A DNA stretch of 64,000 nt from assembly GCA_964435115.1 (NCBI GenBank), contig CAYSYM010000012.1, forward strand, positions 1,088-65,087, read 5' to 3'. Position 1 is the first letter of the stretch. Every line of letters begins with the position of its first letter. Position numbers and translations under genes: made by a program. Positions 3,874 to 44,406 of this stretch are shown here, piece by piece. The notes beneath the pieces are model-generated. The model did not search any database. It was not told the origin of the DNA and saw only the letters and a list, made by a program, of their open reading frames with translations. This DNA comes from an uncultured Chloroflexota bacterium (GTDB lineage: Bacteria > Chloroflexota > UBA6077 > CF-72).

Positions 3874-3948
3874 CCCGAATCCGTGAGTCCGAGATCAGAT
3901 CCGTCACCCAGCGGGTGAAGCTTTCAATCGAGAATCCACGGATTGGGG
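3874..3948. repeat. 75-bp palindromic repeat element, copy 1 of 3, between livK and livH
   Basis: cccgaatccgtgagtccgagatcagatccgtcacccagcgggtgaagctttcaatcgagaatccacggattgggg. The terminal 12-bp arms are inverted repeats (one mismatch) and there is an inner TCACCC-AGC-GGGTGA hairpin. Near-identical copies occur at 5823-5899 and 34114-34189. Confidence 0.75.
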
Positions 3949-5822: not shown

Positions 5823-5899
5823 CCCGGAATCCGTGAGTCCCAGATCCGATCCTTCATCCGCTGGGTGAAGCGTTCGATCTGGAATCCACGGATTCGGGG
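5823..5899. repeat. palindromic repeat element, copy 2 of 3
   Basis: cccggaatccgtgagtcccagatccgatccttcatccgctgggtgaagcgttcgatctggaatccacggattcgggg. Same architecture as copy 1. Lies in the divergent intergenic region between the liv operon and the 6207 gene. Confidence 0.75.
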
Positions 5900-7728: not shown

Positions 7729-8697
7729 TCACTCCACCCCGAGCGCTCTGCCGGGGCGGCCATTGCGCCGCTGGGCGACGGCCTCGCGCAGCACCGCGCC
7801 GGCGAAGAAGGCGAGGTTGGCGGGCCGTTCCGCCAGGCGCCGCATGAGGTACGGGTACCACTGGCGCCCGTACGGCAGGTAGACGCGCACGTTGTAGCCC
7901 TGCCCCAGGAGCTGGTACTGGAGGTCACGCCGCACGCCAAAGAGCATCTGGAACTCGAAACGCTCCGGCCCGATCCGGTGGCGGCGGGCCAGCTCGCGCG
8001 TGTACTGGAGGAGGCGCGCGTCGTGGGTGGCGATGGCCGGGTAGTTGCCTTCCAGGAGCAGCCGCTCGGCCAGGCGGGCGAAGCTGGCGTCCACGTCGGC
8101 CTTGCGCGGCCAGGCAATCTCGGGTGGCTCGAGGTAGGCGCCCTTGCACAGGCGCACCCGCGCTCCCAGGCGCAAGACCCGCTCGAGGTCGGCTGCGGTG
8201 CGGTAGAGCGCAGCCTGGAGCACCACGCCGACATTGCGGTACCCCTCCGACCATAGCGCCTCGTGCACGTCGAGGGTGCGGTCAGTGTAGGCGGACGACT
8301 CCATGTCGATGCGCACGAACACGTTCCCACATGAGCGGGCGTGGTCGAGGATGGAGCGCAGGTTCTCCAGGCACAGCTCGCGGCGAATGTCCAGCCCCAT
8401 CTGCGTCAGCTTGAGCGAGAGGTACGCCTCGAGTGGCGTCTGGGCGATCGCGTCGATGGCTGGCAGGTAGTCACGGGCGGCGACCCGCGCCCCGTCGACG
8501 GTGCGCACGTTCTCGCCCAGGTGGTCGAGCGAGACGGTCAGGCGCTGGGTGTTGAGCGCCTGGGCCACCGCGACGGCCTCGGCCAGGTCCTCGCCGGCGA
8601 CGTAGCGCCAGGCGATGCCACGCAGCAGGTCGTGCCGCATGATGAGGCGGTAGATCGCCGGCTGATTGGCCAGGGTGAGCAGCGCGCCTTTGAGCAT
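7729..8697 (-). CDS. proline dehydrogenase (monofunctional PutA-like)
   Basis: The Pro_dh fold is recognisable (RIDMESSAYTD...LQAALYRT...VRLCKGAY...ATHDARLLQY...). Start taken at MLKGALL, because the ORF's longer N-terminal extension is Arg-rich low complexity. Confidence 0.75.
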   Translation of the reverse strand: MLKGALLTLANQPAIYRLIMRHDLLRGIAWRYVAGEDLAEAVAVAQALNTQRLTVSLDHLGENVRTVDGARVAARDYLPAIDAIAQTPLEAYLSLKLTQMGLDIRRELCLENLRSILDHARSCGNVFVRIDMESSAYTDRTLDVHEALWSEGYRNVGVVLQAALYRTAADLERVLRLGARVRLCKGAYLEPPEIAWPRKADVDASFARLAERLLLEGNYPAIATHDARLLQYTRELARRHRIGPERFEFQMLFGVRRDLQYQLLGQGYNVRVYLPYGRQWYPYLMRRLAERPANLAFFAGAVLREAVAQRRNGRPGRALGVE

Positions 8698-31256: not shown

Positions 31257-31514
31257 CGGGCCTGAGACCCGGGGACCGCTCGGGCTGGGGGACAGAGCCG
31301 CGCGCCACACTCCGCCTGTCTGACCCGGGCAGGCCGGCGCCCGGAGCGTCCTCTGGCTGGCTGGAGCGGCCCGCGCGAGGGGTGGCACGCTCAGTCGACC
31401 ATGGCTTCAGGCGAAGGTGACGTGCGGCGGCGGGTCGCCACGCTGTGCCCGGCCGCGTGGGCGCGGGCCCGGCAACGGCCGGGAACCGGCTGCCCGCGTG
31501 TGGTGTACAAGAGG

Positions 31515-32123
31515 ATGACGAGCACTCCTGTGGAGGGCCGGCCACTGGAGGACCTTGAGAGCACGCTGGTCGAACGGGCACGACAGGGTGACGCGGACGC
31601 CTATGGAGCCCTCGTGGGGCGGTACCAGGACCTTGCCTTCCGCACCGCCTACCTCGTGGTCCACGATGCGGCCGAGGCGGAGGACGCGGCTCAAGAGGCG
31701 TTCATACGCGCCTACGCCGGCCTGGCGCGCTTCAGGGCCGGCGCCCCTTTCCGCCCGTGGCTCCTGCGGATCGCGGCCAACGTGGCCCGCAATCGGCGGC
31801 GGGCGAGCAGCCGGCGTGGGAGCCTCGTGCTGCGCGCGGCGGAGGCGCGCGCCTCGGGAGAGGCGGCCCCCTCTCCCGAGGCGGTCGCGCTCGCCGCGGA
31901 GCAGCGCCGGCTGCTTCTGGCGGCGCTGAACGGGTTGCGCGAGGACGACCGCCTGGCGATTGCCGCCCGCTACTTCCTGGACCTCTCCGAGGCGGAGATG
32001 GCCGTGGCGCTCGGCTGCGCCCGGGGAACGGTGAAGTCGCGCCTGGCGCGAGCGCTTGGGCGGCTGCGAGCCGAGCTAGCGCGCACGGCCGCCGGCGAGG
32101 AGGAGGCAGCCACGCATGGCTGA
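31515..32123 (+). CDS. ECF-type RNA polymerase sigma-70 factor
   Basis: Region 2 (YGALVGRYQDLAFRTAYLVVHD..AEDAAQEAFIRAY) and region 4 HTH (LSEAEMAVALGCARGTVKSRLARA). RBS AGAGGA. 8-nt overlap with the downstream gene. Confidence 0.85.
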   Translation: MTSTPVEGRPLEDLESTLVERARQGDADAYGALVGRYQDLAFRTAYLVVHDAAEAEDAAQEAFIRAYAGLARFRAGAPFRPWLLRIAANVARNRRRASSRRGSLVLRAAEARASGEAAPSPEAVALAAEQRRLLLAALNGLREDDRLAIAARYFLDLSEAEMAVALGCARGTVKSRLARALGRLRAELARTAAGEEEAATHG

Positions 32124-32985
32124 GCGGCTCGGCCGCCTCGGGGAGGCGGAGCTGGAGCGGGCGCTGCGCGACCTGGGCCAGCACCTCGCCTACCCACCCA
32201 CCCCGAACCTGGTGCTGCCTGTACGGCAGCGACTGGCCCAGCGTCCGGCGCGCCGGCTGCCCTGGAGCGGCTGGTGGCCAGTCGGGCGGCGGTTCGCCGT
32301 GGCGCTGGCGGCGCTGCTCGCCCTGGCGAGCGCCGCGCTCCTGGCGTTCGAGCCGGGCGCGCGAACGGCGGTGGCCGAGCGGCTCGGCTTGCGCGGCGTG
32401 TGGATCGAGCGGCTGCCGTTGGTCCCCGCGCCCACGCCGACGGCCACGGCCGCGCCCACGCCGCTCCCCACACCCACCTCGATCCCGCTCGGCGCCCGGC
32501 TCGAGCTGGGGGAGGTGCTGCCGCTGCAGGAGGCCCGGGCTCGCGTGCCGTACCCGGTGGTGGTGCCGAGCCTTCCGGAGCTAGGCGCGCCGGACGAGGT
32601 GTACCTGAGCCCCGTCCCGGCCGGCGGCCAGGTGGCGCTGGTCTACCGGGCGCGGCCGGGCCTGCCACCCGCCTCGGAAACGGGCGTGGGGCTGCTGCTC
32701 ACCCAGTTCGTGGCGCGGCCAGGGACGCTCAACAGTGGTGTGTTGGGCAAGGGCGCCGGCCCCGACACCCGGATCGAAGAGACGGTGGTGAACGGCGGCC
32801 GGGGTGTCTGGCTGGAGGGCCAGCCACACCTCCTGTTTCTGTCGGATGCTCGCGGCCAGCTCCGCCAGGAGCCGGTGCGGCTGGCTGGCAACGTGCTGCT
32901 GTGGGAACAGGGCGAGCTGACGCTGCGGCTCGAGGCTGCGATCTCGAAGGCCGAGGCGCTCCGCATCGCCACCTCCGTGCGGTAG
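32116..32985 (+). CDS. putative anti-sigma factor (single TM, DUF4367-like extracytoplasmic domain)
   Basis: Translationally coupled to the ECF sigma gene. TM WWPVGRRFAVALAALLALASAALLAF. The C-terminal domain resembles anti-sigma DUF4367. Confidence 0.55.
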   Translation: MAERLGRLGEAELERALRDLGQHLAYPPTPNLVLPVRQRLAQRPARRLPWSGWWPVGRRFAVALAALLALASAALLAFEPGARTAVAERLGLRGVWIERLPLVPAPTPTATAAPTPLPTPTSIPLGARLELGEVLPLQEARARVPYPVVVPSLPELGAPDEVYLSPVPAGGQVALVYRARPGLPPASETGVGLLLTQFVARPGTLNSGVLGKGAGPDTRIEETVVNGGRGVWLEGQPHLLFLSDARGQLRQEPVRLAGNVLLWEQGELTLRLEAAISKAEALRIATSVR

Positions 32986-33178: not shown

Positions 33179-33197
33179 TGGTGCCGAAGCGGGGACT
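33179..33197. repeat. 19-bp direct repeat of the tRNA-Leu 3' end (distal att site of an integrated islet)
   Basis: tggtgccgaagcggggact is identical to 36164-36182, which is the complement of the tRNA-Leu T-stem/acceptor/CCA 3' end. Confidence 0.55.
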
Positions 33198-33470
33198 ACA
33201 CGGAGTGGGATGCCTGGGCGTCCCCGGCCGCGCGTTTCAATCTGGGAAACCAGAACGTATGTTCGCCGGCGTGCCTGCGTGAGCCCCGGCGTTGGCCCCT
33301 CCGTTGGTCCCAGCCAGGCGCTACTTTCGCCGGGCAGGAGCGGGTGGGACGTGCTCCACCACCCTCCGACACGTACGACATACGACCTACGCTTGGGCCG
33401 GTGAGATGGCCGTCGCCGGCGCACGGGGCATCCGGCCACGCTACCGGGGTACGGTAGAGCCCCAGCAGCC

Positions 33471-33707
33471 ATGCCCACGGTCCTGAGGGTGCGCGGCTAT
33501 CGCCTCGGCTTCTTCTCGAATGAAGGAACGGAGCCGCCGCACGTCCACGTGCACCGGGCTGAGTATGAGGCCAAGTACTGGCTCTCGCCCGTGGAGCTGG
33601 CCCGGAACCGCGGCTTCAGCGGTCCGGAGCTGACGGAGATCGCCGCGATTGTCCAGGAGCATCGCGCTACACTCCTGGGCGCCTGGCATGACTACTTCGA
33701 CGCCTAG
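33471..33707 (+). CDS. DUF4160 protein
   Basis: 78 aa. GYRLGFFSNEGTEPPHVHVHRAEYEAKYWL is typical of DUF4160. Confidence 0.7.
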   Translation: MPTVLRVRGYRLGFFSNEGTEPPHVHVHRAEYEAKYWLSPVELARNRGFSGPELTEIAAIVQEHRATLLGAWHDYFDA

Positions 33708-33951
33708 ACGCGCCCGGGTACCCGCCTTCGATCCGCGGGCCGTGCAGGTGTGGTGCGACCCGGACCGGCTACACGTGCTGCTGGCGGACGGGCGGGAGAT
33801 CGCCGTGCCGCTGGCGTGGTTCCCCCGACTGGCCGAGGCGCGGCCAGACCAGCGGGCCCGGTGGGAGCCGCTCGGCGGCGGCCACGGCATGCATTGGGAA
33901 GAACTGGACGAGGACATCTCCGTCGAGGGGCTGCTGGGCCTGCCCGACTGA
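33688..33951 (+). CDS. DUF2442 protein
   Basis: Overlaps DUF4160 by 20 nt. VQVWCDPDRLHVLLADGREIAVPLAWFPRL...WEPLGGGHGMHWEELDEDISVEGLL is typical of DUF2442, the usual neighbour of DUF4160. Confidence 0.6.
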   Translation: MTTSTPRRARVPAFDPRAVQVWCDPDRLHVLLADGREIAVPLAWFPRLAEARPDQRARWEPLGGGHGMHWEELDEDISVEGLLGLPD

Positions 33952-34113
33952 GCGCCGGCCACCATCGGAGGGCCGGCGCCTCGCTCCGTCTGCACGCAGC
34001 GTGCGACGAAAGCGAGGGAAGCGACGAAAGGCCGCTGCGTCAGTCCCGGCGTCTCAGCTGCGCGCGCCGGCGCAGGGATGCCGGCGGCAGCCGGCGCGTC
34101 CACTCGAGGCCCT

Positions 34114-34189
34114 CCCGAATCCGTGGGCGCGAGTTCGATTCGTTCACCCAGAAGGTGACACTTTCAATCTGGAATCCACGGATTGGGGG
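34114..34189. repeat. palindromic repeat element, copy 3 of 3 (inside the tRNA-Leu islet)
   Basis: cccgaatccgtgggcgcgagttcgattcgttcacccagaaggtgacactttcaatctggaatccacggattggggg. Same terminal arms and inner core as copies 1 and 2. Confidence 0.75.
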
Positions 34190-34258
34190 CCCTACTGCGC
34201 TGTTGACGTGGTGGGCGCGGCCGGTGTTCACTCGCCCGTGCCGAGTTGGGGGTTCCAC

Positions 34259-34858
34259 ATGGCAACTGAGAGCATCGCGATCCGCCACACCGACCCGAGC
34301 CAGGAGATGGAGGCCCTGCAACGGGTGGCTGGCGACGTGGCGAAGATTCTCACCGCCGGTGAGGAGATTCTGTACGTCGCGCTTCAGAACCGGTCCAGCC
34401 TGTCCATGAAGAAGGACAGCGTCGTAGCCACGTCCAACCGCGTGATCCTCTACCGCCCGGGCATCCTCGGGCGTGTCAACTTCGAAGACTTCCCCTGGCA
34501 GGACGTGGCCAACGCCAAGATCAACCAGGGCTTCCTGGCCACGGACTTCACGGTGGAGACGACAGACGGCCGCAAGGCCCAGCTCGGCGGGCTCGACAAG
34601 GAGCAGGCGAAGCGGCTGTACGGCATCTGCCAGCAGCTTGAGCAGGAGTGGCGCGAGAAGCGGCGCGTCCGCCAGATGGAGGAAGATCGCGCCAAGGCCG
34701 GCGGCGTGTTCGTGACCGGCCCGGCGCCGGCGGCGGCTGCCGCCCCGGCGGAAGACCCCGTGGAGAAGTTGGCCAAGGCCAAGAAGATGCTGGACGCCGG
34801 GCTCATCTCCGAAGCCGAGTACGAAACCCTGAAGGCCAAGGTGCTGTCGAGCATGTAG
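34259..34858 (+). CDS. bacterial PH-domain (bPH_2/YokE-like) protein with C-terminal SHOCT domain
   Basis: EILYVALQNRSS...SNRVILYRPGILGRVNFEDFPWQDVANAKINQGFLATDFTVETTDG is the PH fold. The C-terminal KLAKAKKMLDAGLISEAEYETLKAKVL is SHOCT. Confidence 0.65.
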   Translation: MATESIAIRHTDPSQEMEALQRVAGDVAKILTAGEEILYVALQNRSSLSMKKDSVVATSNRVILYRPGILGRVNFEDFPWQDVANAKINQGFLATDFTVETTDGRKAQLGGLDKEQAKRLYGICQQLEQEWREKRRVRQMEEDRAKAGGVFVTGPAPAAAAAPAEDPVEKLAKAKKMLDAGLISEAEYETLKAKVLSSM

Positions 34859-34961
34859 ATCGCCGGCATCCGCCGGCTCGCACGCATGGCAGAGGCCCCG
34901 GACCATTCCGGGGCCTCATCGTGTCTCATGGACGCTGCCGGCGGCGCCGGCGTGCATGGTG

Positions 34962-35513
34962 CTACTCCGCCGGCGCGTCGGCCGCGTCCACGCCCAACCG
35001 CTTGGCGATGGCCTCCACGCGCTCCACCAGCGCCTGGCGCGGGCTCTCCTCCACCCGGAGCGGCCCACCATTCGCGCCGGTCACTTCGCGCTTCTCCGTC
35101 CACTCGCCTAGCTCCTGCGCCACCTGCTTCTCCAGCGCGCGCATCTCCGCCAGCAGCCCGGTGTCGATGCTGAACTCCACCTCGACCACCGCGCCGCGGC
35201 GGCGCTCAGAGCGCACCAGGAGGCCCGTAGACCAGCCCGGCTCCTCGGCGTAGCGTCGGTCGGCCGCGCGGGCGTCAATGACCGCCTGGAGCCGCCTGTG
35301 GCGCTCCACGTAGCCATCCACGCGGTTCTGCTTGGCCGCGATGCCGGCGCGCAGCAGCTTGGCCTGCATCTCGTGGCGGATGGTGTCCACGCGCTCCCGG
35401 AACGCCGCGTCCACCTTCCAGCGGGCCAGGGTGGACGGGGAGACCCCCACCTTCTCCGCGATGCGGACGTCGGGGACGGCATCCTCGGCCACGAGCTGCG
35501 CGGCGAGCGCCAT
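34962..35513 (-). CDS. phage-type HTH protein (terminase-small-subunit-like)
   Basis: N-terminal HTH (VRIAEKVGVSPSTLARWK), Arg/Glu-rich helical remainder. Genomic context: adjacent to an integrase remnant and an att site. Confidence 0.45.
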   Translation of the reverse strand: MALAAQLVAEDAVPDVRIAEKVGVSPSTLARWKVDAAFRERVDTIRHEMQAKLLRAGIAAKQNRVDGYVERHRRLQAVIDARAADRRYAEEPGWSTGLLVRSERRRGAVVEVEFSIDTGLLAEMRALEKQVAQELGEWTEKREVTGANGGPLRVEESPRQALVERVEAIAKRLGVDAADAPAE

Positions 35514-35532
35514 CCGGCCGGCCGTGGTGGGT

Positions 35533-36111
35533 GCCGCCGCGTTGCGGTGGGAGGACGTGGACGTGGTGCGCCGCGTCCTGCACGTGCGGCACACCCTCAC
35601 GCGGGTGCCAAAGAGCCAGGGCTCCTTCGCCTTCACCCCGCCGAAGACGATGAGTAGCCGGCGGGTCGTGCCACTGAACGACGACGCCGTGGCTGCCCTG
35701 CGCGCCCAGCGGATCGCCGCGCAGGAGGCACGGCTGTTTGCCGGGTCGAAGTGGGAAGACCACGGCCTCGTCTTCCCCAACCGCGTGGGGAAGCCACTCC
35801 GCGAGGACCACGTGCTGGCAGCCTTTCACCAGGTCTGCCACGCGGCCGGGGTGCCGCGGAAGCGCCTGCACGACTGGCGGCACTTCGCCGCGTCGGTCGC
35901 CTTCGCCAACGGCGCCGAGCTGCGGGACGTGCAAGACCTCCTGGGCCACAGCCGCATTGACATGACCAGCGCCATCTACACGGCGTCCGCACTCCACCGC
36001 ACGCGCGACGTGGTGACTCGGCTCGGGAGCGTCTTCGACGACGCGCCGGAGTCCCCGGACGCAGCCGCCGGGGCCGCGTTGGTCCCAGCGTTGGTCCCAA
36101 CGGCCGTCTGA
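35533..36111 (+). pseudogene. tyrosine recombinase/integrase, C-terminal catalytic domain only (N-terminal SAM-like domain missing)
   Basis: LRWEDVD...HTLTRV...RLHDWRHFAASVAFANGAELRDVQDLLGHSRIDMTSAIYT carries the R...HxxR...Y catalytic motifs. No core-binding domain. The ORF upstream of residue ~68 is unrelated sequence overlapping the opposite-strand gene. About 50 bp from the tRNA-Leu 3' end. Confidence 0.65.
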
Positions 36112-36120
36112 GGCATGGAA

Positions 36121-36152
36121 AAGGGCCTCTCCTGAACTTGGGAGAGGCCCTT
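36121..36152 (-). terminator. rho-independent terminator of tRNA-Leu
   Basis: AAGGGCCUCUCC-(8 nt)-GGAGAGGCCCUU 12-bp stem, followed on the minus strand by UUUUCC. Confidence 0.55.
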
Positions 36153-36163
36153 ACGCTGCCAAG

Positions 36164-36250
36164 TGGTGCCGAAGCGGGGACTCGAACCCCGACGGGAGTA
36201 CTCCCACTACGCCCTGAACGTAGCGCGTCTGCCAATTCCGCCACTTCGGC
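36164..36250 (-). tRNA. tRNA-Leu (anticodon CAG)
   Basis: Manual fold gives acceptor GCCGAAG/CUUCGGC, 3-bp D-stem with an 11-nt loop, anticodon stem CUACG/CGUAG with loop UUCAGGG, long variable arm GGGAG-UA-CUCCC, T-arm CGGGG-UUCGAGU-CCCCG, discriminator A and encoded CCA. Confidence 0.9.
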
Positions 36251-36355: not shown

Positions 36356-36438
36356 CGGGGTGATTGGTCCGACCACTTTGCCATACGGCCGCGCGGGCCA
36401 GTCGCATCCGGGGAGAATGTGGAAAGGGAGCGCAACCT

Positions 36439-37662
36439 ATGGGCGTAGCAACGGCCAACGGGGCGGCCCACACCAACGGGGTCACCCGCGCGCCCGCGGT
36501 GTCCTACTCCGTCGAAGTGGTGTACCGGGGCATCTTCCAGAAGACGCTGGCTAACCGGATCGCGCGCGGGGTCGTGCTCGGCGCCCGCAAGGACGGCAAG
36601 GTAGGAACGGCCTTCGCTCGCTACGGCGATTCGCCCGAGCGCAACGGTATTCCCGCTAAGAACTTCGCCGTCGTCGCGTCGGACGAGGACGAACTCGAGG
36701 GCTCACTCGCGCGCTACGAGCCGGACGCGGTGGACGTCTCGATCGTCGTCGACGACACCATGTGCAAGGGCATCGAGTCGTGGGCCTGGTATGGCGTCCA
36801 GCCGATCAACAAGCTGGTGCGGCCCGGCGGCTACCTGGTGGTGACGTCGGCCCGCGAGCCGGACGAGCTGCTCCGCTTCATCAAGGTGAAGCCGTACGAC
36901 TACACGCTGGTCGTCATCCCCACCCAGGCGGCGCCCGGCGTCTTCGCCCCGGAGAGCACGGCGAGCCTGGGCGGCCTCTGGGTCTACAACGACGACAACA
37001 CCGACTACGCCTGCATGGCGGCCGTCGCGCGGGCCATGCCGCAGATCGTCTCGCTGGACGCGGTGCTGCAGATCGTCCGCGAGCAGACCAAGGACGAGGC
37101 GCGGGTCGAGGCGGTTCGGGCGAAGCACGCGGCGCTCAAGATCCGCCCGGTGAAGGCGGGCGAAGGGAGCACCGTCGAGTACGAGGAGTACACGAAGCCT
37201 GGCTGGACCGCCATGCGCGAGGGCATCATCGTTGAGGCGATGAAGGTTGGGACGCGCAACCCGGTCTACAAGAAGTGGAGCACACGCACCAGCCGGCCCC
37301 TCGTCAACTTCGACACGTGCATCAAGTGCACGCAGTGCTGGCTCCAGTGCCCTGACGAGGCGTTCGAGGTGACACCCGAGGGGACCTACGAGGTGATCTA
37401 CGAGGCGTGCATCGGCTGCGGCGTCTGCGCCGACGTCTGCCCCGTGCCGGACTGCATCACCATGGTCAACGAGCTGGAGTTCGACACGCTCGACAGCCTG
37501 TACCGGGTGTACAAGCAGGACCGCGCCGGCTACCAGGCGCTGCTGGAACGGCGCGGCATCCCGCTGCACCCGGAGCTGGAGGAGAAGGCACGCAAGACCC
37601 CGCCCGTGCACGACGTGGCGGAGCGCCAGTGGCCGATCGCCGTAGCGGGAGGAGAGGAGTAG
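36439..37662 (+). CDS. 2-oxoacid:ferredoxin oxidoreductase gamma-delta fusion subunit (PorC/PorD-like)
   Basis: N-terminal POR gamma domain. C-terminal two [4Fe-4S] motifs (CIKCTQCWLQCP and CIGCGVCADVCP). RBS GGGAG. Confidence 0.85.
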   Translation: MGVATANGAAHTNGVTRAPAVSYSVEVVYRGIFQKTLANRIARGVVLGARKDGKVGTAFARYGDSPERNGIPAKNFAVVASDEDELEGSLARYEPDAVDVSIVVDDTMCKGIESWAWYGVQPINKLVRPGGYLVVTSAREPDELLRFIKVKPYDYTLVVIPTQAAPGVFAPESTASLGGLWVYNDDNTDYACMAAVARAMPQIVSLDAVLQIVREQTKDEARVEAVRAKHAALKIRPVKAGEGSTVEYEEYTKPGWTAMREGIIVEAMKVGTRNPVYKKWSTRTSRPLVNFDTCIKCTQCWLQCPDEAFEVTPEGTYEVIYEACIGCGVCADVCPVPDCITMVNELEFDTLDSLYRVYKQDRAGYQALLERRGIPLHPELEEKARKTPPVHDVAERQWPIAVAGGEE

Positions 37663-37664
37663 CC

Positions 37665-38897
37665 ATGGCCATCGCGGTACGACCGGAGCGTCCGAGGGGC
37701 GCGCCCGCCGGGGAGCAAGAGCAGCTCCTGACTGGTTCGGAGGCCATCGCCCAGGCGCTGCGCATGGCGGACGTGGACATCATGGCCGCCTACCCCATCC
37801 GCCCGTACGACGCCGTTATGCAGGCGGTCGCCAAGATGATCGCCAATGGCGAGATGGACTGCGAGTACATCGTCGCTGAGGGCGAGCACTCCCAGTTTGA
37901 GCTGGTCAAGCACGCCAGCGCGGTCGGCGCCCGCTCCTTCGTCGGGTCCTCCGGCGTGGGCTGGTTCTACGCCTTCGAGTCGATCGCGGTGACGGCCGGG
38001 CTGCGGCTGCCCGTCGTGGCCAACGTGGGCAACCGCGCGCTGGACGACCCGGGCGCCTTCGGGGTGGAGCACAACGACGCGCTCGCGGTGCGCGACCTGG
38101 GCTGGCTGATGACCTGGGTGGAGACCGGCCAGGAGGCGTTCGACGCGACGGTGATCGCCTACCGCGTGGCCGAGGATAGCCAGGTGAGTCTGCCGGTGGC
38201 CATCTGCACCGACGGGGCGTTCCTGACCCACTCGCAGCACCTGGTGAAGCTGCCGCCCAGGGAGCTGGTGGCGGAGTACCTGCCGCGGTACGACCTGGGG
38301 AACCGGCTCTTCCACCCGGACAACCCCATCACCATCGCCCCGCAGGTCGACCAGGACTGGCTGATGGAGATCCGCAGGCAGAACGACGCGGCCGCGCGCC
38401 AGGCGCCGGAAGTGATTCGGCAGGCCTACCGCGAGTTCTACGAGCTGTTCGGCCGCCAGCGGGAGCCGTTCGTCGAGGAGTACATGACCGACGACGCGGA
38501 CTACGTGCTCGTGGGGCAGGGGACGATCGCCATGCCCGGGCGCGTCACGGTGCGCCGGCTGCGAGAGCAGGGCCACAAGGTGGGTTTCGTCCGGCTCAAG
38601 TGGTTCCGGCCGTTCCCTACCGAGGATATCCTGGCCAGCTTGAGCCGCTTCAAGGGCGTGGGCATCATCGACCGCGACTACAGCTTCGGCTCGCCGCACC
38701 ACGGTGGCGTGCTCTTCACCGAAATGCGAGCCGCCTTCTACGACGTGCCCAAGCGGCCAGCTATGATCAACTTCATCGCCGGTCTGGGCGGGCGCGAGAT
38801 TACCGCCGGCGAGGGCGCGGACATGTTCCGCCTGGTGCAGGAGGCGTCGGTCGGCGGCCTGAAGGACAACGTCTTCTGGATTGGCGTCCGCGAGTAG
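37665..38897 (+). CDS. 2-oxoacid:ferredoxin oxidoreductase alpha subunit (PorA-like)
   Basis: POR domain I and II conserved blocks (GSEAIAQAL...AYPIRPY..., VGFVRLKWFRPFP). RBS GGGAGGAGAGGAG. Confidence 0.9.
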   Translation: MAIAVRPERPRGAPAGEQEQLLTGSEAIAQALRMADVDIMAAYPIRPYDAVMQAVAKMIANGEMDCEYIVAEGEHSQFELVKHASAVGARSFVGSSGVGWFYAFESIAVTAGLRLPVVANVGNRALDDPGAFGVEHNDALAVRDLGWLMTWVETGQEAFDATVIAYRVAEDSQVSLPVAICTDGAFLTHSQHLVKLPPRELVAEYLPRYDLGNRLFHPDNPITIAPQVDQDWLMEIRRQNDAAARQAPEVIRQAYREFYELFGRQREPFVEEYMTDDADYVLVGQGTIAMPGRVTVRRLREQGHKVGFVRLKWFRPFPTEDILASLSRFKGVGIIDRDYSFGSPHHGGVLFTEMRAAFYDVPKRPAMINFIAGLGGREITAGEGADMFRLVQEASVGGLKDNVFWIGVRE

Positions 38898-38915
38898 CAG
38901 GGGAGAGGGAGACCC

Positions 38916-39947
38916 ATGGCTCTGGCAACTGAACCCACCACCGAGCTCGTCGATCTGAGCTCGATCAAGACCGTCAAGCAGGTGCCGTACACCGAGTACT
39001 TCGTCTCGGGGCACCGCACCTGCCAGGGATGTGAGTCGGCGCTGGTCATGCGCTACATCGCGAAGGCGGCCGGGCCACGCACGATCGTGCTGGGTAGCAC
39101 GGGGTGCATGTACGTGGCCAACACCAGCTACTACACCACGCCGTGGGTGGTGCCCTGGATGCACACCCAGCTCGGCGCGGCCGGCTCGGCGGCGCTGGGC
39201 GCGGCGGCCGGGCTGAAGGTGCTGATGCGCAAGGGCAAGCTGAAGGACGAGCCGATCAATGTGATCGCCTTCTGTGGCGACGGCGGCGGCGCCGACATGG
39301 GCCTGGGCGCCATCAGCGCCTCGCTCACCCACGCCGACTACCGCTTCCTAATCATCCTGTACGACAACGAGTCGTACGCTAACACCGACATCCAGCTCTC
39401 CGGCTCGACACCCTACGGCGCGGTCACGACCTTCTCGCCTACAGGCAAGAAGCGGCGGCTCATGCACACGCGCTGGAAGAAGAACACCCCAGGGGCGCTG
39501 CTGGCGGGGCACCCGGACGCGGCCTACATCGCCACCGCGGACGCGGCCTTCGGCGTGGACTTCATGAACAAGGTGCGCAAGGGCCTCGCTTCCGGCGGGC
39601 CGGCGTTCATCCAGGTGCTCGATCCCTGCCCCAAGGGGTGGCATTATGACCCGCAGCTCTCCAGCGAGCTCGGCAAGCTGGCGGTCGAGACCGGCGTCTG
39701 GCCCCTGTGGGAGATGGAGCACCACAAGGTCAGCCTGAACAGCACGACCAAGGCGATCGCCGAGGGGCGGTTCAAGCGGAAGCCGGTGCGGGAGTACCTG
39801 AGCCGGCAGGGCCGGTTCGCCCACTTCACCGACGAGGACTACACCTACTTCCAGCGGCGCGTGGACGAGATGTGGACTGACTGGCTCATCCCGGGCGTCG
39901 TCTCCTTCGGGGTGGAGCGCGGCACGCCGCTCAACGTCCCGGCGTAA
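38916..39947 (+). CDS. 2-oxoacid:ferredoxin oxidoreductase beta subunit (TPP-binding, PorB-like)
   Basis: GHRTCQGCE...GCMYV Cys cluster and TPP-binding GDGGGADMG motif. Confidence 0.9.
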   Translation: MALATEPTTELVDLSSIKTVKQVPYTEYFVSGHRTCQGCESALVMRYIAKAAGPRTIVLGSTGCMYVANTSYYTTPWVVPWMHTQLGAAGSAALGAAAGLKVLMRKGKLKDEPINVIAFCGDGGGADMGLGAISASLTHADYRFLIILYDNESYANTDIQLSGSTPYGAVTTFSPTGKKRRLMHTRWKKNTPGALLAGHPDAAYIATADAAFGVDFMNKVRKGLASGGPAFIQVLDPCPKGWHYDPQLSSELGKLAVETGVWPLWEMEHHKVSLNSTTKAIAEGRFKRKPVREYLSRQGRFAHFTDEDYTYFQRRVDEMWTDWLIPGVVSFGVERGTPLNVPA

Positions 39948-40177
39948 GCGCGCTGCCTCCTTGCGCTCGAGGTGGATCTGAGGCTGGCCCCGGCTGGGCC
40001 GTACTCCAGCCGGGGCCAGCCGTGCCCACACGCTTCACACCCTTCTCCACGGGAAGCGCGACGCACGTGGGCTGAGTCGTGCCAGGCCCTGGCCGGCTGG
40101 CCTGCCGGCCACGGGCGGCCCCGTGGAGCGGCCACCGGCTCGTTCGCCTCTCCGAGGGCGGGCGCGGCGCTGGCGCG

Positions 40178-41368
40178 TCAGGCGGCGCCGGCCTGGAGCA
40201 GGCGGATCTCGTCCTCCGAGTAACCCACCTCGCGCAGCACCTCAGCCGTGTGCTGCCCCAGCAGCGGCGGCCCGCATCGGATCTCGGCGGGTGTCGCCGA
40301 GAGGCGGTAGGCGAAGCCGGTCGTCTGCAGGCCCTTCACATTCGGATGAGGGGTGGGCTGGGCGAGCTGGAGGTGCTGCGCCTGAGGATCGGCGAACACC
40401 TCCGCCAGGTCGAACACGGGACCGACAGGCACTTCGGCGCCTGAGAGCGCCTCGATCACCTCGGCGGTTGCCATCGTCCGCAGGCGTTCCTGGATCAGGG
40501 CGCTGAGCGCGTCACGGTTCGCCACCCGATCCGGATTCGACGCGAAGCGCGGATCCTCGAGCAGCGCCTGCAGCCCGAGCGCGTGGCAGAGCCGCTGCCA
40601 CATCCCCTCGTTCCCGCACGCGACGTTGACGTAACTATCCCGCGTCGGGAAGGTCTCGTACGGGGCGATGCTGGCGTGGCGGTTGCCGATCCGCGCCGGC
40701 GCCCGGCGCGTGGCGAAGTAGCGGCCGGCCAGGTGCGTGAGCATGGCCACCTGGCTGCCGAGCATCGAGGTATCGATCCACTGGCCCCGGCGCTGCGGGT
40801 CGCGCTCGCGGGCGAAGAGGGCGGCCACCACGGCGAACGCGGCGAACATACCCGCCGTGATGTCCGCGACCGGCGGGCCCACCTTGGTCGGTGGCCCGTC
40901 CGGCTCGCCCGTCAGGCCCTGGAACCCCCCTATCCCCTGCAGGATCGCATCGTAGGCCGGCTGCATGGCGCGCGGCCCCGTCTGGCCGAAGCCGGAGATC
41001 GAACAGTAGACCAGCGACGGGTTGAGCGACTGCGCCTGCTGGTAGCTCAGCCCCAGACGATCCATCGTCCCCGGCCGGAAGTTCTCCACCAGCACGTCCG
41101 CGCGCGCGGCGAGCCGCTGCAGGGCTGCCTGGCCCCTGGCGCCCTTCAGATCGAGCGCCACACTGCGCTTGTTGCGATTGACGCTCAGGAAGTAGCTGCT
41201 CTCGTCCGCCTGGAACGGCGGGCCCCACTGGCGGGTCTCGTCGCCGGACCCTGGCAGCTCGATCTTCACCACGTCGGCGCCCATGTCGCCGAGCATGAGG
41301 GTGCAGTACGGTCCCGCCAGCGCGCGGGTGAGGTCAAGGACGCGGATGCCCGCGAGAGGTCCAGCCAT
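40178..41368 (-). CDS. CoA-transferase family III (CaiB/BaiF) protein
   Basis: GIRVLDLTRALAGPYCT...DVVKIE...LVENFRPG are family III hallmarks, including the catalytic Asp region. Confidence 0.85.
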   Translation of the reverse strand: MAGPLAGIRVLDLTRALAGPYCTLMLGDMGADVVKIELPGSGDETRQWGPPFQADESSYFLSVNRNKRSVALDLKGARGQAALQRLAARADVLVENFRPGTMDRLGLSYQQAQSLNPSLVYCSISGFGQTGPRAMQPAYDAILQGIGGFQGLTGEPDGPPTKVGPPVADITAGMFAAFAVVAALFARERDPQRRGQWIDTSMLGSQVAMLTHLAGRYFATRRAPARIGNRHASIAPYETFPTRDSYVNVACGNEGMWQRLCHALGLQALLEDPRFASNPDRVANRDALSALIQERLRTMATAEVIEALSGAEVPVGPVFDLAEVFADPQAQHLQLAQPTPHPNVKGLQTTGFAYRLSATPAEIRCGPPLLGQHTAEVLREVGYSEDEIRLLQAGAA

Positions 41369-41476
41369 GCGCGCCCATGGTAGCCGAGCAGTGCGATTAC
41401 GGTCGGATCACACCTGCGGCAGCGGATGAGAGCCGCCTGGCCGGGCCGGGTGGGGGGCGCTAGACTGCCTGGAGGG

Positions 41477-42106
41477 ATGTCCGAAGACACGCTCGAGCAG
41501 GTGGCCGCGGACGTCCGGCGCTGCCAGAAGTGCCGCCTGTTCAAGACGGCGACGCAGGGCGTCCCCGGCGAAGGCAGCCCGACCGCCGAGGTCATGTTCA
41601 TCGGGGAAGGGCCGGGCTACCACGAGGACCAGCAGGGCCGGCCGTTCGTCGGCGTGGCCGGCCAGCTCCTCGACGAGATGATCGCGCGCATCGGCCTGCG
41701 GCGCGCCGACGTGTTCATCACCAACGTCGTGCGCCACCGACCGCCGGACAACCGCGATCCAGCGCCGGACGAGCTGGCCGCCTGCGATGAGTACACGCAG
41801 CGGCAGATCGCGCTGCTCAGACCCAGGCTGATCGTGACCCTGGGCCGCTACTCGATGGCGCGCTTCTTCGGCGCGGACGCCAGGATCAGTCGCATCCACG
41901 GCCAGACCACCAGGTGGAACGGCATCACCTGTCTCGCCATGTACCACCCCGCCGCCGTCCTGCGAGCGCAATCGTCCGACATGCGCCGCGCCTACGCGGA
42001 CGATTTTGCCAGGATCCCGGCCCTGCTGCAGCAGGTCGAGCGGCAGCCGGAGCCTCACCTCCCGCCCGGGTCGCCGGAGAAGGTCGACCAGCTCCCCCTG
42101 TTCTGA
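41477..42106 (+). CDS. uracil-DNA glycosylase, family 4
   Basis: CQKCRL...GEGPG...VGVAGQLLD...HPAAVLR motifs. Start at MSEDT. Confidence 0.85.
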   Translation: MSEDTLEQVAADVRRCQKCRLFKTATQGVPGEGSPTAEVMFIGEGPGYHEDQQGRPFVGVAGQLLDEMIARIGLRRADVFITNVVRHRPPDNRDPAPDELAACDEYTQRQIALLRPRLIVTLGRYSMARFFGADARISRIHGQTTRWNGITCLAMYHPAAVLRAQSSDMRRAYADDFARIPALLQQVERQPEPHLPPGSPEKVDQLPLF

Positions 42107-42111
42107 GCCAT

Positions 42112-44406
42112 ATGGTCATCCGCTCAGTCGCGCAACCGACCCGCGGTCCGGCCACGCCGGGCAGCCGTCGGCGCCCCCATGCGCCCCAAGGGCGCAGCCG
42201 CTGGCCGCTCGTGCGAGACGGCCTCGCCGTCCTGGCGATCGCGCTGGGGATCTTCCTGGGGGTCGTGGTGTTCCTTCCCAGTGAGGGGCGGGTAGCTGGC
42301 CCGCTGCGCGACGCCCTAGCGCTGCTGCTCGGCCGTGGGACGTTCCTGCTCCCTATCGTGCTCGTCGCCTCGGGGGCTGCCGTGCTCACGCGCAGCCTTT
42401 TCCCTGAGGTGCCCATCCCCTTTGCCCGGCTGACTGGCGCGGCGCTGCTCGCCGCGGCGGCGCTGCCCTCCATGCAGCTCGTCGGCCTCGAGCCCGGCGA
42501 GTCGCTGGCGCGGGCCCAGGCGCGCGACGGCGGTGGGTTGGTGGGGCACTGGCTGGCCACCGGCCTGCTGGAGTGGCTGGGAGGGCCGGCGACGACCGCG
42601 CTCCTGGCCGGGGCGATCGCCATCGGCCTGCTGCTCGCGTCCGACCTCACAGTAGGGGAGGTCGCGCACGCCCTCTCGGTCGCCGCGCGCTGGCTGTGGC
42701 ACTACCTCGTCCTGCTCGCCCGCGCCGGGACGCGCGCGGCCGGCGCGGCCGGCGCTGCCCTCTCCGCCCGGCGTGGCGCGCGGGCTCCCAGCCCGAGCGC
42801 ATGGCCACGCTGGCCGGTCGGGCGGACCAGCCGTGGATCGGCCGTCCCACCCGCGGCATCGGCCGTGCCCGCCCCCCCAGCCATGCTGCCCCGCCCGGGC
42901 ACGGAGCCTATCATGGCTCCCTCGGCAGAGTGGGAGCGCCACCCGGCGCGGCTCACGCAGGCGGGCCCACCCGCATCGGCGCCGGTACCCAGCGTGGCGT
43001 CCGTGGTCGCGCCACCGCTCCCAGTCGCACCGGCGCCGGCGAGCCCGGCGGAACTGTGGCGGCTGCCGACGATTGACCTCTTCCGGCCGCGCCCCCAGGC
43101 CGAGCTGGGCGCTACGGACTTGCGGGCGCGGGCGCGCATCATCGAAGACACACTGGCCAGCTTCAACATCGAGGCGAGGGTGGTCGAGATGAACCAGGGC
43201 CCGGCCGTCACCCAGTTCGGCGTGGAGCCGGCGCACGGCGTGGCCGTGAACCGCATCCTCTCGCGCCAGAACGACCTGGCGCTTCGGCTGGGCGCGTCCC
43301 CCATCCGCCTGGAGGCGCCGGTGCCGGGCAAGCGCCTGGTCGGCGTGGAGGTGCCGAACCGGTCGATCGCCACGGTCACCCTGCGCGACGTCGTCGAGTC
43401 GCCCGACTGGGAGCGCGGGCGCGGCAAGCTGCGGATCTTGCTCGGGCGGGACGTGTCCGGCCAGTCGATCGTTGGCGACCTGTCCCGGATGCCACACCTG
43501 CTGATCGCCGGCGCGACGGGCTCGGGCAAGAGCGTGTGCCTCAACGCGATCGTCGGCAGCCTGCTGTACCAGCTCACGCCCGACGAGCTCCAGCTCGTGA
43601 TGATCGACCCGAAGCGAGTCGAGCTGGCGGCGTACGCCGACATCCCGCACCTGCGGCTCCCCGTGGTGACCGAGATGGGGAAGGTGGTTGGCGCGCTGAA
43701 GTGGGTGGTGCTGGAGATGGAGCGGCGCTACAAGCTCTTCGCCCAGCGCGGCGTGCGTCACCTGGAGGGGTACAACCGCTGGGCCGTGGGCCAGGAGCGC
43801 GCCGAGGAGCGTCCACTCCCGTTCCTGGTGGTGGTAATCGACGAGCTGGCGGACATGATGATGACCGCGGCCGAGGAGGTGGAGAAGAAGCTGTGCCGGC
43901 TGGCGCAGCTCGCCCGGGCGACAGGCATCCACCTGGTCGTGGCGACGCAGCGGCCGAGCGTGGATGTAGTGACCGGCTTGATCAAGGCGAACTTCCCCAC
44001 GCGGATCGCCTTCGCGGTGTCGTCGCAGACCGATTCCCGGGTAATCCTGGACCAGGCGGGTGCCGAGAAGCTGCTCGGACGGGGCGATGCGCTATACACG
44101 CCGCCCGACGCGATGAAGCCCATTCGCCTCCAGGGCGCGTTCGTGTCTGACGAGGAGATCCAGGCGCTCGTGACCCACTGGCAGGAGCAAGGTGGGCCGC
44201 GCTACACGGATGAGGAAGTAGAGCAGGTAGAGTCTCTCGGTCGGGGCGGTGACGAGGACGACGACGTGTACGAGCGGGCCGTCGAGCTGGCCGAAACAGT
44301 GGGCCGGCTCTCGGCCTCGCTCCTCCAGCGGCGTCTGGGGATCGGCCACGTCCGCGCCCAGCGGCTGCTGGACCGATTGGTCGACGAGGGCATCGCCGAG
44401 GAGTAG
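42112..44406 (+). CDS. ftsK: DNA translocase FtsK/SpoIIIE
   Basis: N-terminal TM segments, Pro/Ala linker, FtsK alpha/beta motor (GATGSGKS, VVIDELADMMM) and C-terminal winged-helix gamma domain. Confidence 0.9.
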   Translation: MVIRSVAQPTRGPATPGSRRRPHAPQGRSRWPLVRDGLAVLAIALGIFLGVVVFLPSEGRVAGPLRDALALLLGRGTFLLPIVLVASGAAVLTRSLFPEVPIPFARLTGAALLAAAALPSMQLVGLEPGESLARAQARDGGGLVGHWLATGLLEWLGGPATTALLAGAIAIGLLLASDLTVGEVAHALSVAARWLWHYLVLLARAGTRAAGAAGAALSARRGARAPSPSAWPRWPVGRTSRGSAVPPAASAVPAPPAMLPRPGTEPIMAPSAEWERHPARLTQAGPPASAPVPSVASVVAPPLPVAPAPASPAELWRLPTIDLFRPRPQAELGATDLRARARIIEDTLASFNIEARVVEMNQGPAVTQFGVEPAHGVAVNRILSRQNDLALRLGASPIRLEAPVPGKRLVGVEVPNRSIATVTLRDVVESPDWERGRGKLRILLGRDVSGQSIVGDLSRMPHLLIAGATGSGKSVCLNAIVGSLLYQLTPDELQLVMIDPKRVELAAYADIPHLRLPVVTEMGKVVGALKWVVLEMERRYKLFAQRGVRHLEGYNRWAVGQERAEERPLPFLVVVIDELADMMMTAAEEVEKKLCRLAQLARATGIHLVVATQRPSVDVVTGLIKANFPTRIAFAVSSQTDSRVILDQAGAEKLLGRGDALYTPPDAMKPIRLQGAFVSDEEIQALVTHWQEQGGPRYTDEEVEQVESLGRGGDEDDDVYERAVELAETVGRLSASLLQRRLGIGHVRAQRLLDRLVDEGIAEE

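Follow-up and report, generated by a model that had tools for sequence, protein, structure and literature searches.

The 64 000-nucleotide stretch of DNA analysed here (hereafter the window), from an uncultured Chloroflexota bacterium, contains at positions 33179-36182 a 3-kb islet that adjoins a tRNA-Leu gene. Between two direct repeats the islet holds an overlapping DUF4160/DUF2442 gene pair, a hairpin-forming repeat, a gene for a PH-SHOCT protein, a truncated gene for a phage small terminase subunit (terS') and a truncated tyrosine integrase gene (int'). ARAGORN called exactly one tRNA in the whole window, a minus-strand tRNA-Leu(CAG) at 36164-36250 whose long variable arm is normal; an Rfam scan of the whole window at gathering threshold returned zero families, tRNA included. 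The reverse complement of the last 19 nt of this tRNA, TGGTGCCGAAGCGGGGACT, is present in two exact copies, at 33179-33197 and 36164-36182, and no further copy was found in the window at up to two mismatches (shuffle expectation 0.01). The duplication had already been reported in a preliminary description of this DNA, which also named, as a result that would speak against it, many copies of the 19-mer genome-wide; within the window the count is two.

The repeated block comprises the last three nucleotides of the T-loop, the 3' strand of the T-stem, the 3' strand of the acceptor stem, the discriminator and the CCA, and the identity between the two copies has one limit exactly at the tRNA 3' terminus and the other inside the T-loop. 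Direct repeats of the tRNA 3' end, limited at the CCA terminus, thus bound the islet. The left copy (33179-33197) borders the chromosomal flank, has no predicted tRNA around it and is the displaced copy, or attL core; the right copy (36164-36182) is the 3' end of the functional tRNA gene, or attR core. By sequence, this 19-bp footprint is as expected for an element that carries a tRNA 3' end in its attachment site (attP), and tRNA-Leu(CAG), the integration target, also follows a related integrase in another locus (L085, below). The junctions predicted from the islet ends are ...GGAAGTACAGGGGC-TGGTGCCGAAGCGGGGACT-CGAACCCCGACGG for the chromosomal site (attB) and ...CTTACGCTGCCAAG-TGGTGCCGAAGCGGGGACT-ACACGGAGTGGGATG for attP.

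Adjoining the tRNA-proximal att site is int' (35524-36111, plus strand), the C-terminal 195 aa of a tyrosine integrase, recognized by a Pfam Phage_integrase match (PF00589, profile positions 41-169 of 172) inside the open reading frame (ORF) 35332-36111. From the last base of its stop codon (36111) to the 3' end of the tRNA is a distance of 52 bp (about 50 bp had been reported), and int' converges on the tRNA. The same convergence on tRNA-Leu(CAG) occurs in L085, whose integrase (P0010) is 46% identical to int', and the integrase of L291, 34% identical, converges on tRNA-Leu(TAA). The nearest relatives, P0002 and P0003, are 55-59% identical. Alignment with P0002, P0003 and P0010 shows that homology starts at AAALRWEDVD, right behind the TGLRFGE motif that holds the first catalytic arginine (Arg I), and that the fragment corresponds to residue 213 onward of a 382-aa relative; the residue nine positions before the Trp is Ala in int'. 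The arm-binding domain, the core-binding (SAM-like) domain and Arg I are all missing, and what remains of the catalytic set is Lys (PPKT), HxxR (HDWRH), His (GHS) and Tyr (AIY). The preliminary description had noted the loss of the SAM-like domain, in agreement with the Pfam coverage of profile positions 41-169 only, and had taken the RHRY motifs to be present; the latter does not hold, as both the Pfam match and the alignment begin downstream of Arg I. Because this arginine is gone, int' is, as judged from its sequence, catalytically dead beyond the loss of its N-terminal domains.

On the minus strand at 34962-35513 lies a 183-aa ORF with a helix-turn-helix (HTH) domain, terS'. Its profile hits are by themselves weak (Pfam PF13384 and PF13022, PHROG terminase-small families), and it is the gene neighbourhood of its homologues that settles its identity. 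For the closest two, P0044 (59%) and P0046 (51%), the genes for large terminase, portal, protease and capsid follow immediately downstream (loci L156 and L158). In an alignment-based scan the family was found on 48 IMG/VR contigs, and the large terminase, identified by Pfam, is the next large ORF downstream in 8 of the 10 contigs sampled. On these grounds of homology and context the protein, described before as terminase-small-like, is a genuine small terminase and the ancestor of the islet was most likely a tailed phage, terS' being the one phage hallmark gene that the islet has kept. It too is truncated: the first 10-25 residues found in every homologue aligned are lacking, such that the HTH remains and its first helix is gone, and the window holds no large terminase gene (terL); the TerS-terL adjacency is that of the homologues.

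The two truncated genes are joined at their broken ends. In tblastn searches with phage loci, and in agreement with the alignments, TerS homology begins at 35507 and integrase homology at 35533, and 5'-truncated terS' and 5'-truncated int' therefore meet head to head at a deletion junction within 35508-35532; the starts chosen by gene callers, ATG at 35513 and GTG at 35524, are probably fortuitous. The int and terS genes of lambda-like prophages point away from each other across the early region, and one deletion suffices to create this junction. At its other end terS' converges on the PH-SHOCT gene across a gap of 103 bp, which contains a 10-bp perfect GC-rich hairpin (GAGGCCCCGG-accatt-CCGGGGCCTC, 34892-34917) between the two stops. 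No terL, portal or capsid remnant was found in the window by tblastn with the phage loci, and neither further phage gene remnants nor a second integrase remnant were found in the window or among the islet's intergenic ORFs. Since nothing of terL or later genes is present beyond terS', at least one second deletion would have its junction somewhere in 34859-34961.

Just inside both cores are short tandem repeats with a period of 12 nt. On the right, GCGTTGGTCCCA occurs twice at 36076-36099 (plus strand), 65 nt from the tRNA 3' end and within the 3' coding region of int' (candidate P arm). On the left, GCGTGAGCCCCG, GCGTTGGCCCCT and CCGTTGGTCCCA (repeat family D1) follow one another at 33277-33312 (plus strand), 80-115 nt inside attL (candidate P' arm), the second and third of these, at 33289-33312 (92-115 nt inside attL), being related to GCGTTGGTCCCA. 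In the window CGTTGGTCCCA, an 11-mer, has just three exact copies, all of them at the islet ends and with both ends represented. Comparable pairs, again of period 12, stand beside the tRNA-Leu genes of the two loci that carry related integrases: GGTTGCTACA twice in L085 (1190-1211, 67 nt from the tRNA) and GCGTTGCTACA twice in L291 (11042-11064, 94 nt from the tRNA). Tandem pairs of this period are thus present 65-94 nt from the tRNA 3' end at all three loci, and as motif, period and position are common to integrases just 34-46% identical to the int' fragment, the repeats are best read as binding sites: those of the GCGTTGGTCCCA type, 65-115 nt inside each core, are probably arm-type sites for the integrase N-terminal domain. 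The same motif at both islet ends would also tie both ends to one kind of recombinase.

We read 33179-36182 as very probably the grounded 3-kb stump of a temperate tailed phage (Caudoviricetes) at tRNA-Leu(CAG). A decayed prophage or integrative-element remnant had been proposed at the outset, and terS', the geometry of integrase and tRNA, and the tandem motifs at both cores all support that view. The tyrosine integrase of such a phage would have inserted it at the 3' end of tRNA-Leu(CAG), with the crossover placed inside the 19-bp block because identity spans T-loop to CCA; the tRNA would have been rebuilt by the phage attP copy (attR, 36164-36182) and its original 3' end moved to 33179-33197 (attL). 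From their remains we infer the order and number of the deletions that followed. One would have run from inside int, just 3' of the Arg I codon, across the early region and into the first ~25 codons of terS, and at least one more, downstream of terS, would have taken out everything from terL to the tail and lysis genes. The DUF4160/DUF2442 pair and the PH-SHOCT gene would be the intact survivors, the latter derived from the far end of the prophage, and a hairpin repeat of the host would have landed later between them. Autonomous excision would be impossible without a working integrase.

Of the two survivors, the gene pair is the better understood. The DUF4160 gene (33471-33707, plus strand; 78 aa) matches PF13711 over profile positions 1-65 of 65 (E 4.6e-19), and the DUF2442 gene (33688-33951, plus strand; 87 aa; as called in the other-assembly contigs L081 and L082) matches PF10387 (E 5e-22). 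Both are full length with near-complete Pfam profile coverage, DUF4160 comes first and DUF2442 overlaps it by 20 nt, all of which bears out the earlier recognition of an overlapping pair. This is the gene order of DhiTA, with a DhiT-type toxin followed by a DhiA-type antitoxin: DUF4160/DUF2442 has been validated as the type II toxin-antitoxin system dhiTA in Dickeya dadantii, toxin gene first (PMC8198452), and in Thermus thermophilus the pair is a plasmid persistence module in which deletion of the second gene is not tolerated (PMC12724237). By domain content and gene order the pair here belongs to the DhiTA family, and by analogy it would act as a toxin-antitoxin in the present host, which may help explain why this piece of the islet was retained. 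A sequence search of the PDB matched only an uncharacterised DUF2442 structure, 3k8r. The cargo had been described as of unknown function, which still fits the PH-SHOCT protein and no longer fits the DUF4160/DUF2442 pair, given its validated family.

The PH-SHOCT gene (34259-34858, plus strand) encodes an intact protein of 199 aa with the Pfam domains bPH_3 and SHOCT, as had been noticed before. Its homologues (n = 260) are 60-77% identical across phyla, marking it as a widespread, strongly conserved and uncharacterised mobile-element gene family. In L291, a prophage at tRNA-Leu(TAA), the homologue (8001-8600) has the CI/ImmA immunity genes on one side and the integrase on the other, and in L289 (5304-5891) it is 4 kb from an integrase adjoining tRNA-Asp. 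The gene is probably a phage accessory ('moron') gene, and the analogy of its position in L291 suggests one that is expressed during lysogeny. An AlphaFold (AF2) model (pLDDT, the predicted local distance difference test score, 82) consists of a bacterial PH domain, a long helix, a disordered linker and a SHOCT helical hairpin; a fold search with this model retrieved generic PH domains only, the nearest solved structures (3dcx and 3hsa) both being uncharacterised. A literature search on PH-SHOCT function gave nothing useful, and the PADLOC defence-system models matched none of the five islet proteins.

Between the toxin-antitoxin pair and the PH-SHOCT gene, at 34114-34188, is the third copy of a 75-nt imperfect palindrome (CCCGAATCCGTG...CACGGATTGGGG), the repeat-element copy that had been placed in the islet earlier. 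The other two are at 3874-3948 and 5824-5898, where they bracket one gene; the three copies share 80-83% identity and each folds into a single long hairpin (-34 to -48 kcal/mol, z -2.6 to -4.9). The 159 related loci contain no copy, and contigs in the strain's other assemblies are interrupted within the repeat. From its sequence it looks like a genome-specific element of the REP/MITE type (repetitive extragenic palindrome/miniature inverted-repeat transposable element). An AT-rich 11-mer of the repeat, TTTCAATCTGG (34162-34172), is found once more at 33235-33245, 40 nt inside attL. Two matches to it occurred in just 1 of 100 shuffles, and the second may represent an incomplete copy of the repeat or a binding site common to both places.

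Four contigs from further assemblies of this strain, drawn from two Logan runs and from the NCBI metagenome-assembled genome (MAG) GCA_027310525.1, carry the islet in the same arrangement (99.9-100% identity), and it is therefore not an assembly artefact. The left flank looks chromosomal, with genes for an extracytoplasmic function (ECF) sigma factor and an anti-sigma-like protein ending at 32985. Within 31401-32985 the ECF sigma factor gene overlaps a gene for a 289-aa protein that has no Pfam domain and behaves like an anti-sigma partner, and the two are kept together in many metagenome loci. To the right lies a pyruvate/2-oxoacid:ferredoxin oxidoreductase (PFOR) operon, whose PFOR subunit finds its best matches in Chloroflexota MAGs at 69-76% amino-acid identity. 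With the nearest Chloroflexota genomes (L002, L003 and L006) synteny covers 36364-42115, from the operon rightwards, and ends at tRNA-Leu; in these three genomes the 10 kb that precede the operon match no part of the window.

Several observations weigh against a single phage as the source of the islet, or leave its insertion to be deduced from anatomy. The empty site was not found: in the PFOR-matched genomes (at most 76% identical) synteny breaks off precisely at the tRNA and tRNA-Leu(CAG) is missing upstream, a scan of metagenome contigs with the anti-sigma-like protein yielded 68 loci at up to 58% identity with a tRNA in none of the 60 scanned, and exact-protein look-ups returned same-strain contigs only, every one with the islet. 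Close relatives are lacking, those available being distant and non-syntenic here, which accounts for the missing empty site, and it is for want of this comparison that the insertion is deduced from the islet's anatomy, which is itself highly specific. Nor did searches of IMG/VR and INPHARED find an intact sibling prophage. Single-protein scans of IMG/VR gave no integrase relatives and one TerS locus; alignment-based scans gave many integrase and TerS loci, none with both and none with the cargo genes; and tblastn against INPHARED gave one distant TerS match and no PH-SHOCT match. GC is about 72%, and the islet (65-73%) does not stand clearly apart from its flanks; compositional anomaly was dropped as evidence, as the islet values fall within the flank range. 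The role of the tandem repeats as arm sites is a prediction. Finally, a PH-SHOCT homologue (P0119) sits in a plain chromosomal context in one of the three neighbourhoods examined, and in L291 the gene is found between repressor and integrase; a simple two-deletion path would not give the gene order of the window unless PH-SHOCT sat elsewhere in the ancestral phage.

Two further ideas concern what the stump may still do. The first is that it serves as a cassette mobilizable in cis or trans, like a cis-mobilizable element (CIME), excised or co-integrated by the integrase and excisionase (Xis) of an incoming related phage. The identical 19-bp cores with candidate arm-type repeats on both sides would suit this, as would the existence of related tRNA-Leu-targeting integrases in environmental genomes. 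We consider it unlikely, however, as the integrated form is present in all four of the other strain contigs, with no circular junction or empty site there, and no helper phage was identified; it is in any case compatible with a remnant origin and not an alternative to it. The second, to which we give a similarly small chance, is that DhiTA and PH-SHOCT form a selected mini-cassette for joint prophage-derived protection (e.g. superinfection exclusion or abortive infection) that a related phage integrase could still move because both att cores and the candidate arm sites survive. Pointing this way are the intact DhiTA pair, the 60-77% identity of PH-SHOCT across phyla and the place of the L291 copy in a prophage immunity region.

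The awkward position of PH-SHOCT gives some room to an origin by accretion, in which two elements integrated in tandem at the one tRNA, the toxin-antitoxin pair and PH-SHOCT coming from an older island and terS'-int' from a later prophage, before the internal att site and most of both were deleted. It is well established that tRNA genes often gather tandem arrays; PH-SHOCT adjoins int in L291, where a single lambda-like ancestor would have it at the far prophage end; and terS' and PH-SHOCT converge at a distance of 103 bp. We nonetheless regard accretion as distinctly unlikely, given that a third att copy is absent from the window at up to two mismatches, that a second integrase remnant was not found and that one arm-type motif stands at both outer ends, as though both had been served by the same kind of integrase.

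That the ancestor was instead a phage satellite or small integrative island, like the phage-inducible chromosomal islands (PICIs) or Staphylococcus aureus pathogenicity islands (SaPIs), with its own int and a terS that hijacked the packaging of a helper, appears quite improbable. An int and a terS unaccompanied by terL are an established feature of satellites, and no terL, portal or capsid remnant remains in the window, but large terminase and head genes come directly after nearly all sampled TerS homologues, as in ordinary phages, and with int and terS both truncated the islet is a remnant either way. That the region is ancestral chromosome and its 19-bp repeat arose by chance or as a duplication artefact, as the near-background GC content and missing empty site might suggest, is scarcely credible: 0.01 matches are expected, the repeat is limited exactly at the tRNA terminus, and the interval between the copies is just where the fragments of integrase and terminase and the matching arm motifs are found.

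Read as a tailed-phage remnant, the islet marks tRNA-Leu(CAG) as an integration hot spot, and the ORFs terS' and int' are better annotated as pseudogenes. The candidate arm-type motif, GCGTTG-N-T-N-CA in tandem with a period of 12, is a small gain for a little-studied clade of tRNA-Leu-targeting integrases, and one more DhiTA pair surviving on a prophage remnant is another.

Each part of the islet has known counterparts. Like the HTH small terminases of the phBC6A51 type, terS' has an N-terminal HTH and homologues upstream of terL; it differs from them in having lost its first ~10-25 residues and its partner terL. With the DhiTA systems of Dickeya dadantii (dhiTA) and Thermus (the 'persistence-enhancing module') the islet shares the two identical Pfam domains in small overlapping genes, toxin first, whereas its own pair is predicted from sequence and sits in another host phylum on a prophage remnant. 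CIMEs, the remains of integrative and conjugative elements (ICEs) that have lost their recombination and transfer modules, likewise retain intact att flanks and have lost a working integrase, but the islet would derive from a phage and not an ICE, and its mobilization is conjecture. The likeness to an attP of the lambda type lies in a short core that falls within the block of identity and is flanked on each side, 65-115 nt away, by tandem direct repeats, and in a motif kept among related integrases; here, unlike in lambda, the right-hand pair is inside the int coding region and the arm sites are predicted from sequence, and neither Xis nor integration host factor (IHF) sites were identified at the islet. 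The closest parallels overall are the cryptic prophages of Escherichia coli K-12 (CP4-57 at ssrA; e14, Rac and Qin), which share with the islet a tyrosine integrase, duplication of the target 3' end as attL and attR, loss of the lytic genes by internal deletion and retention of accessory genes that include toxin-antitoxin pairs. Compared with these prophages of 10-25 kb, the islet is reduced to 3 kb, its integrase is broken (N-terminal half and Arg I gone), one hallmark gene fragment (terS') is left, and its host is an uncultured, high-GC bacterium. It is thus a well-known kind of feature, an ordinary genome scar that leaves current understanding unchanged.

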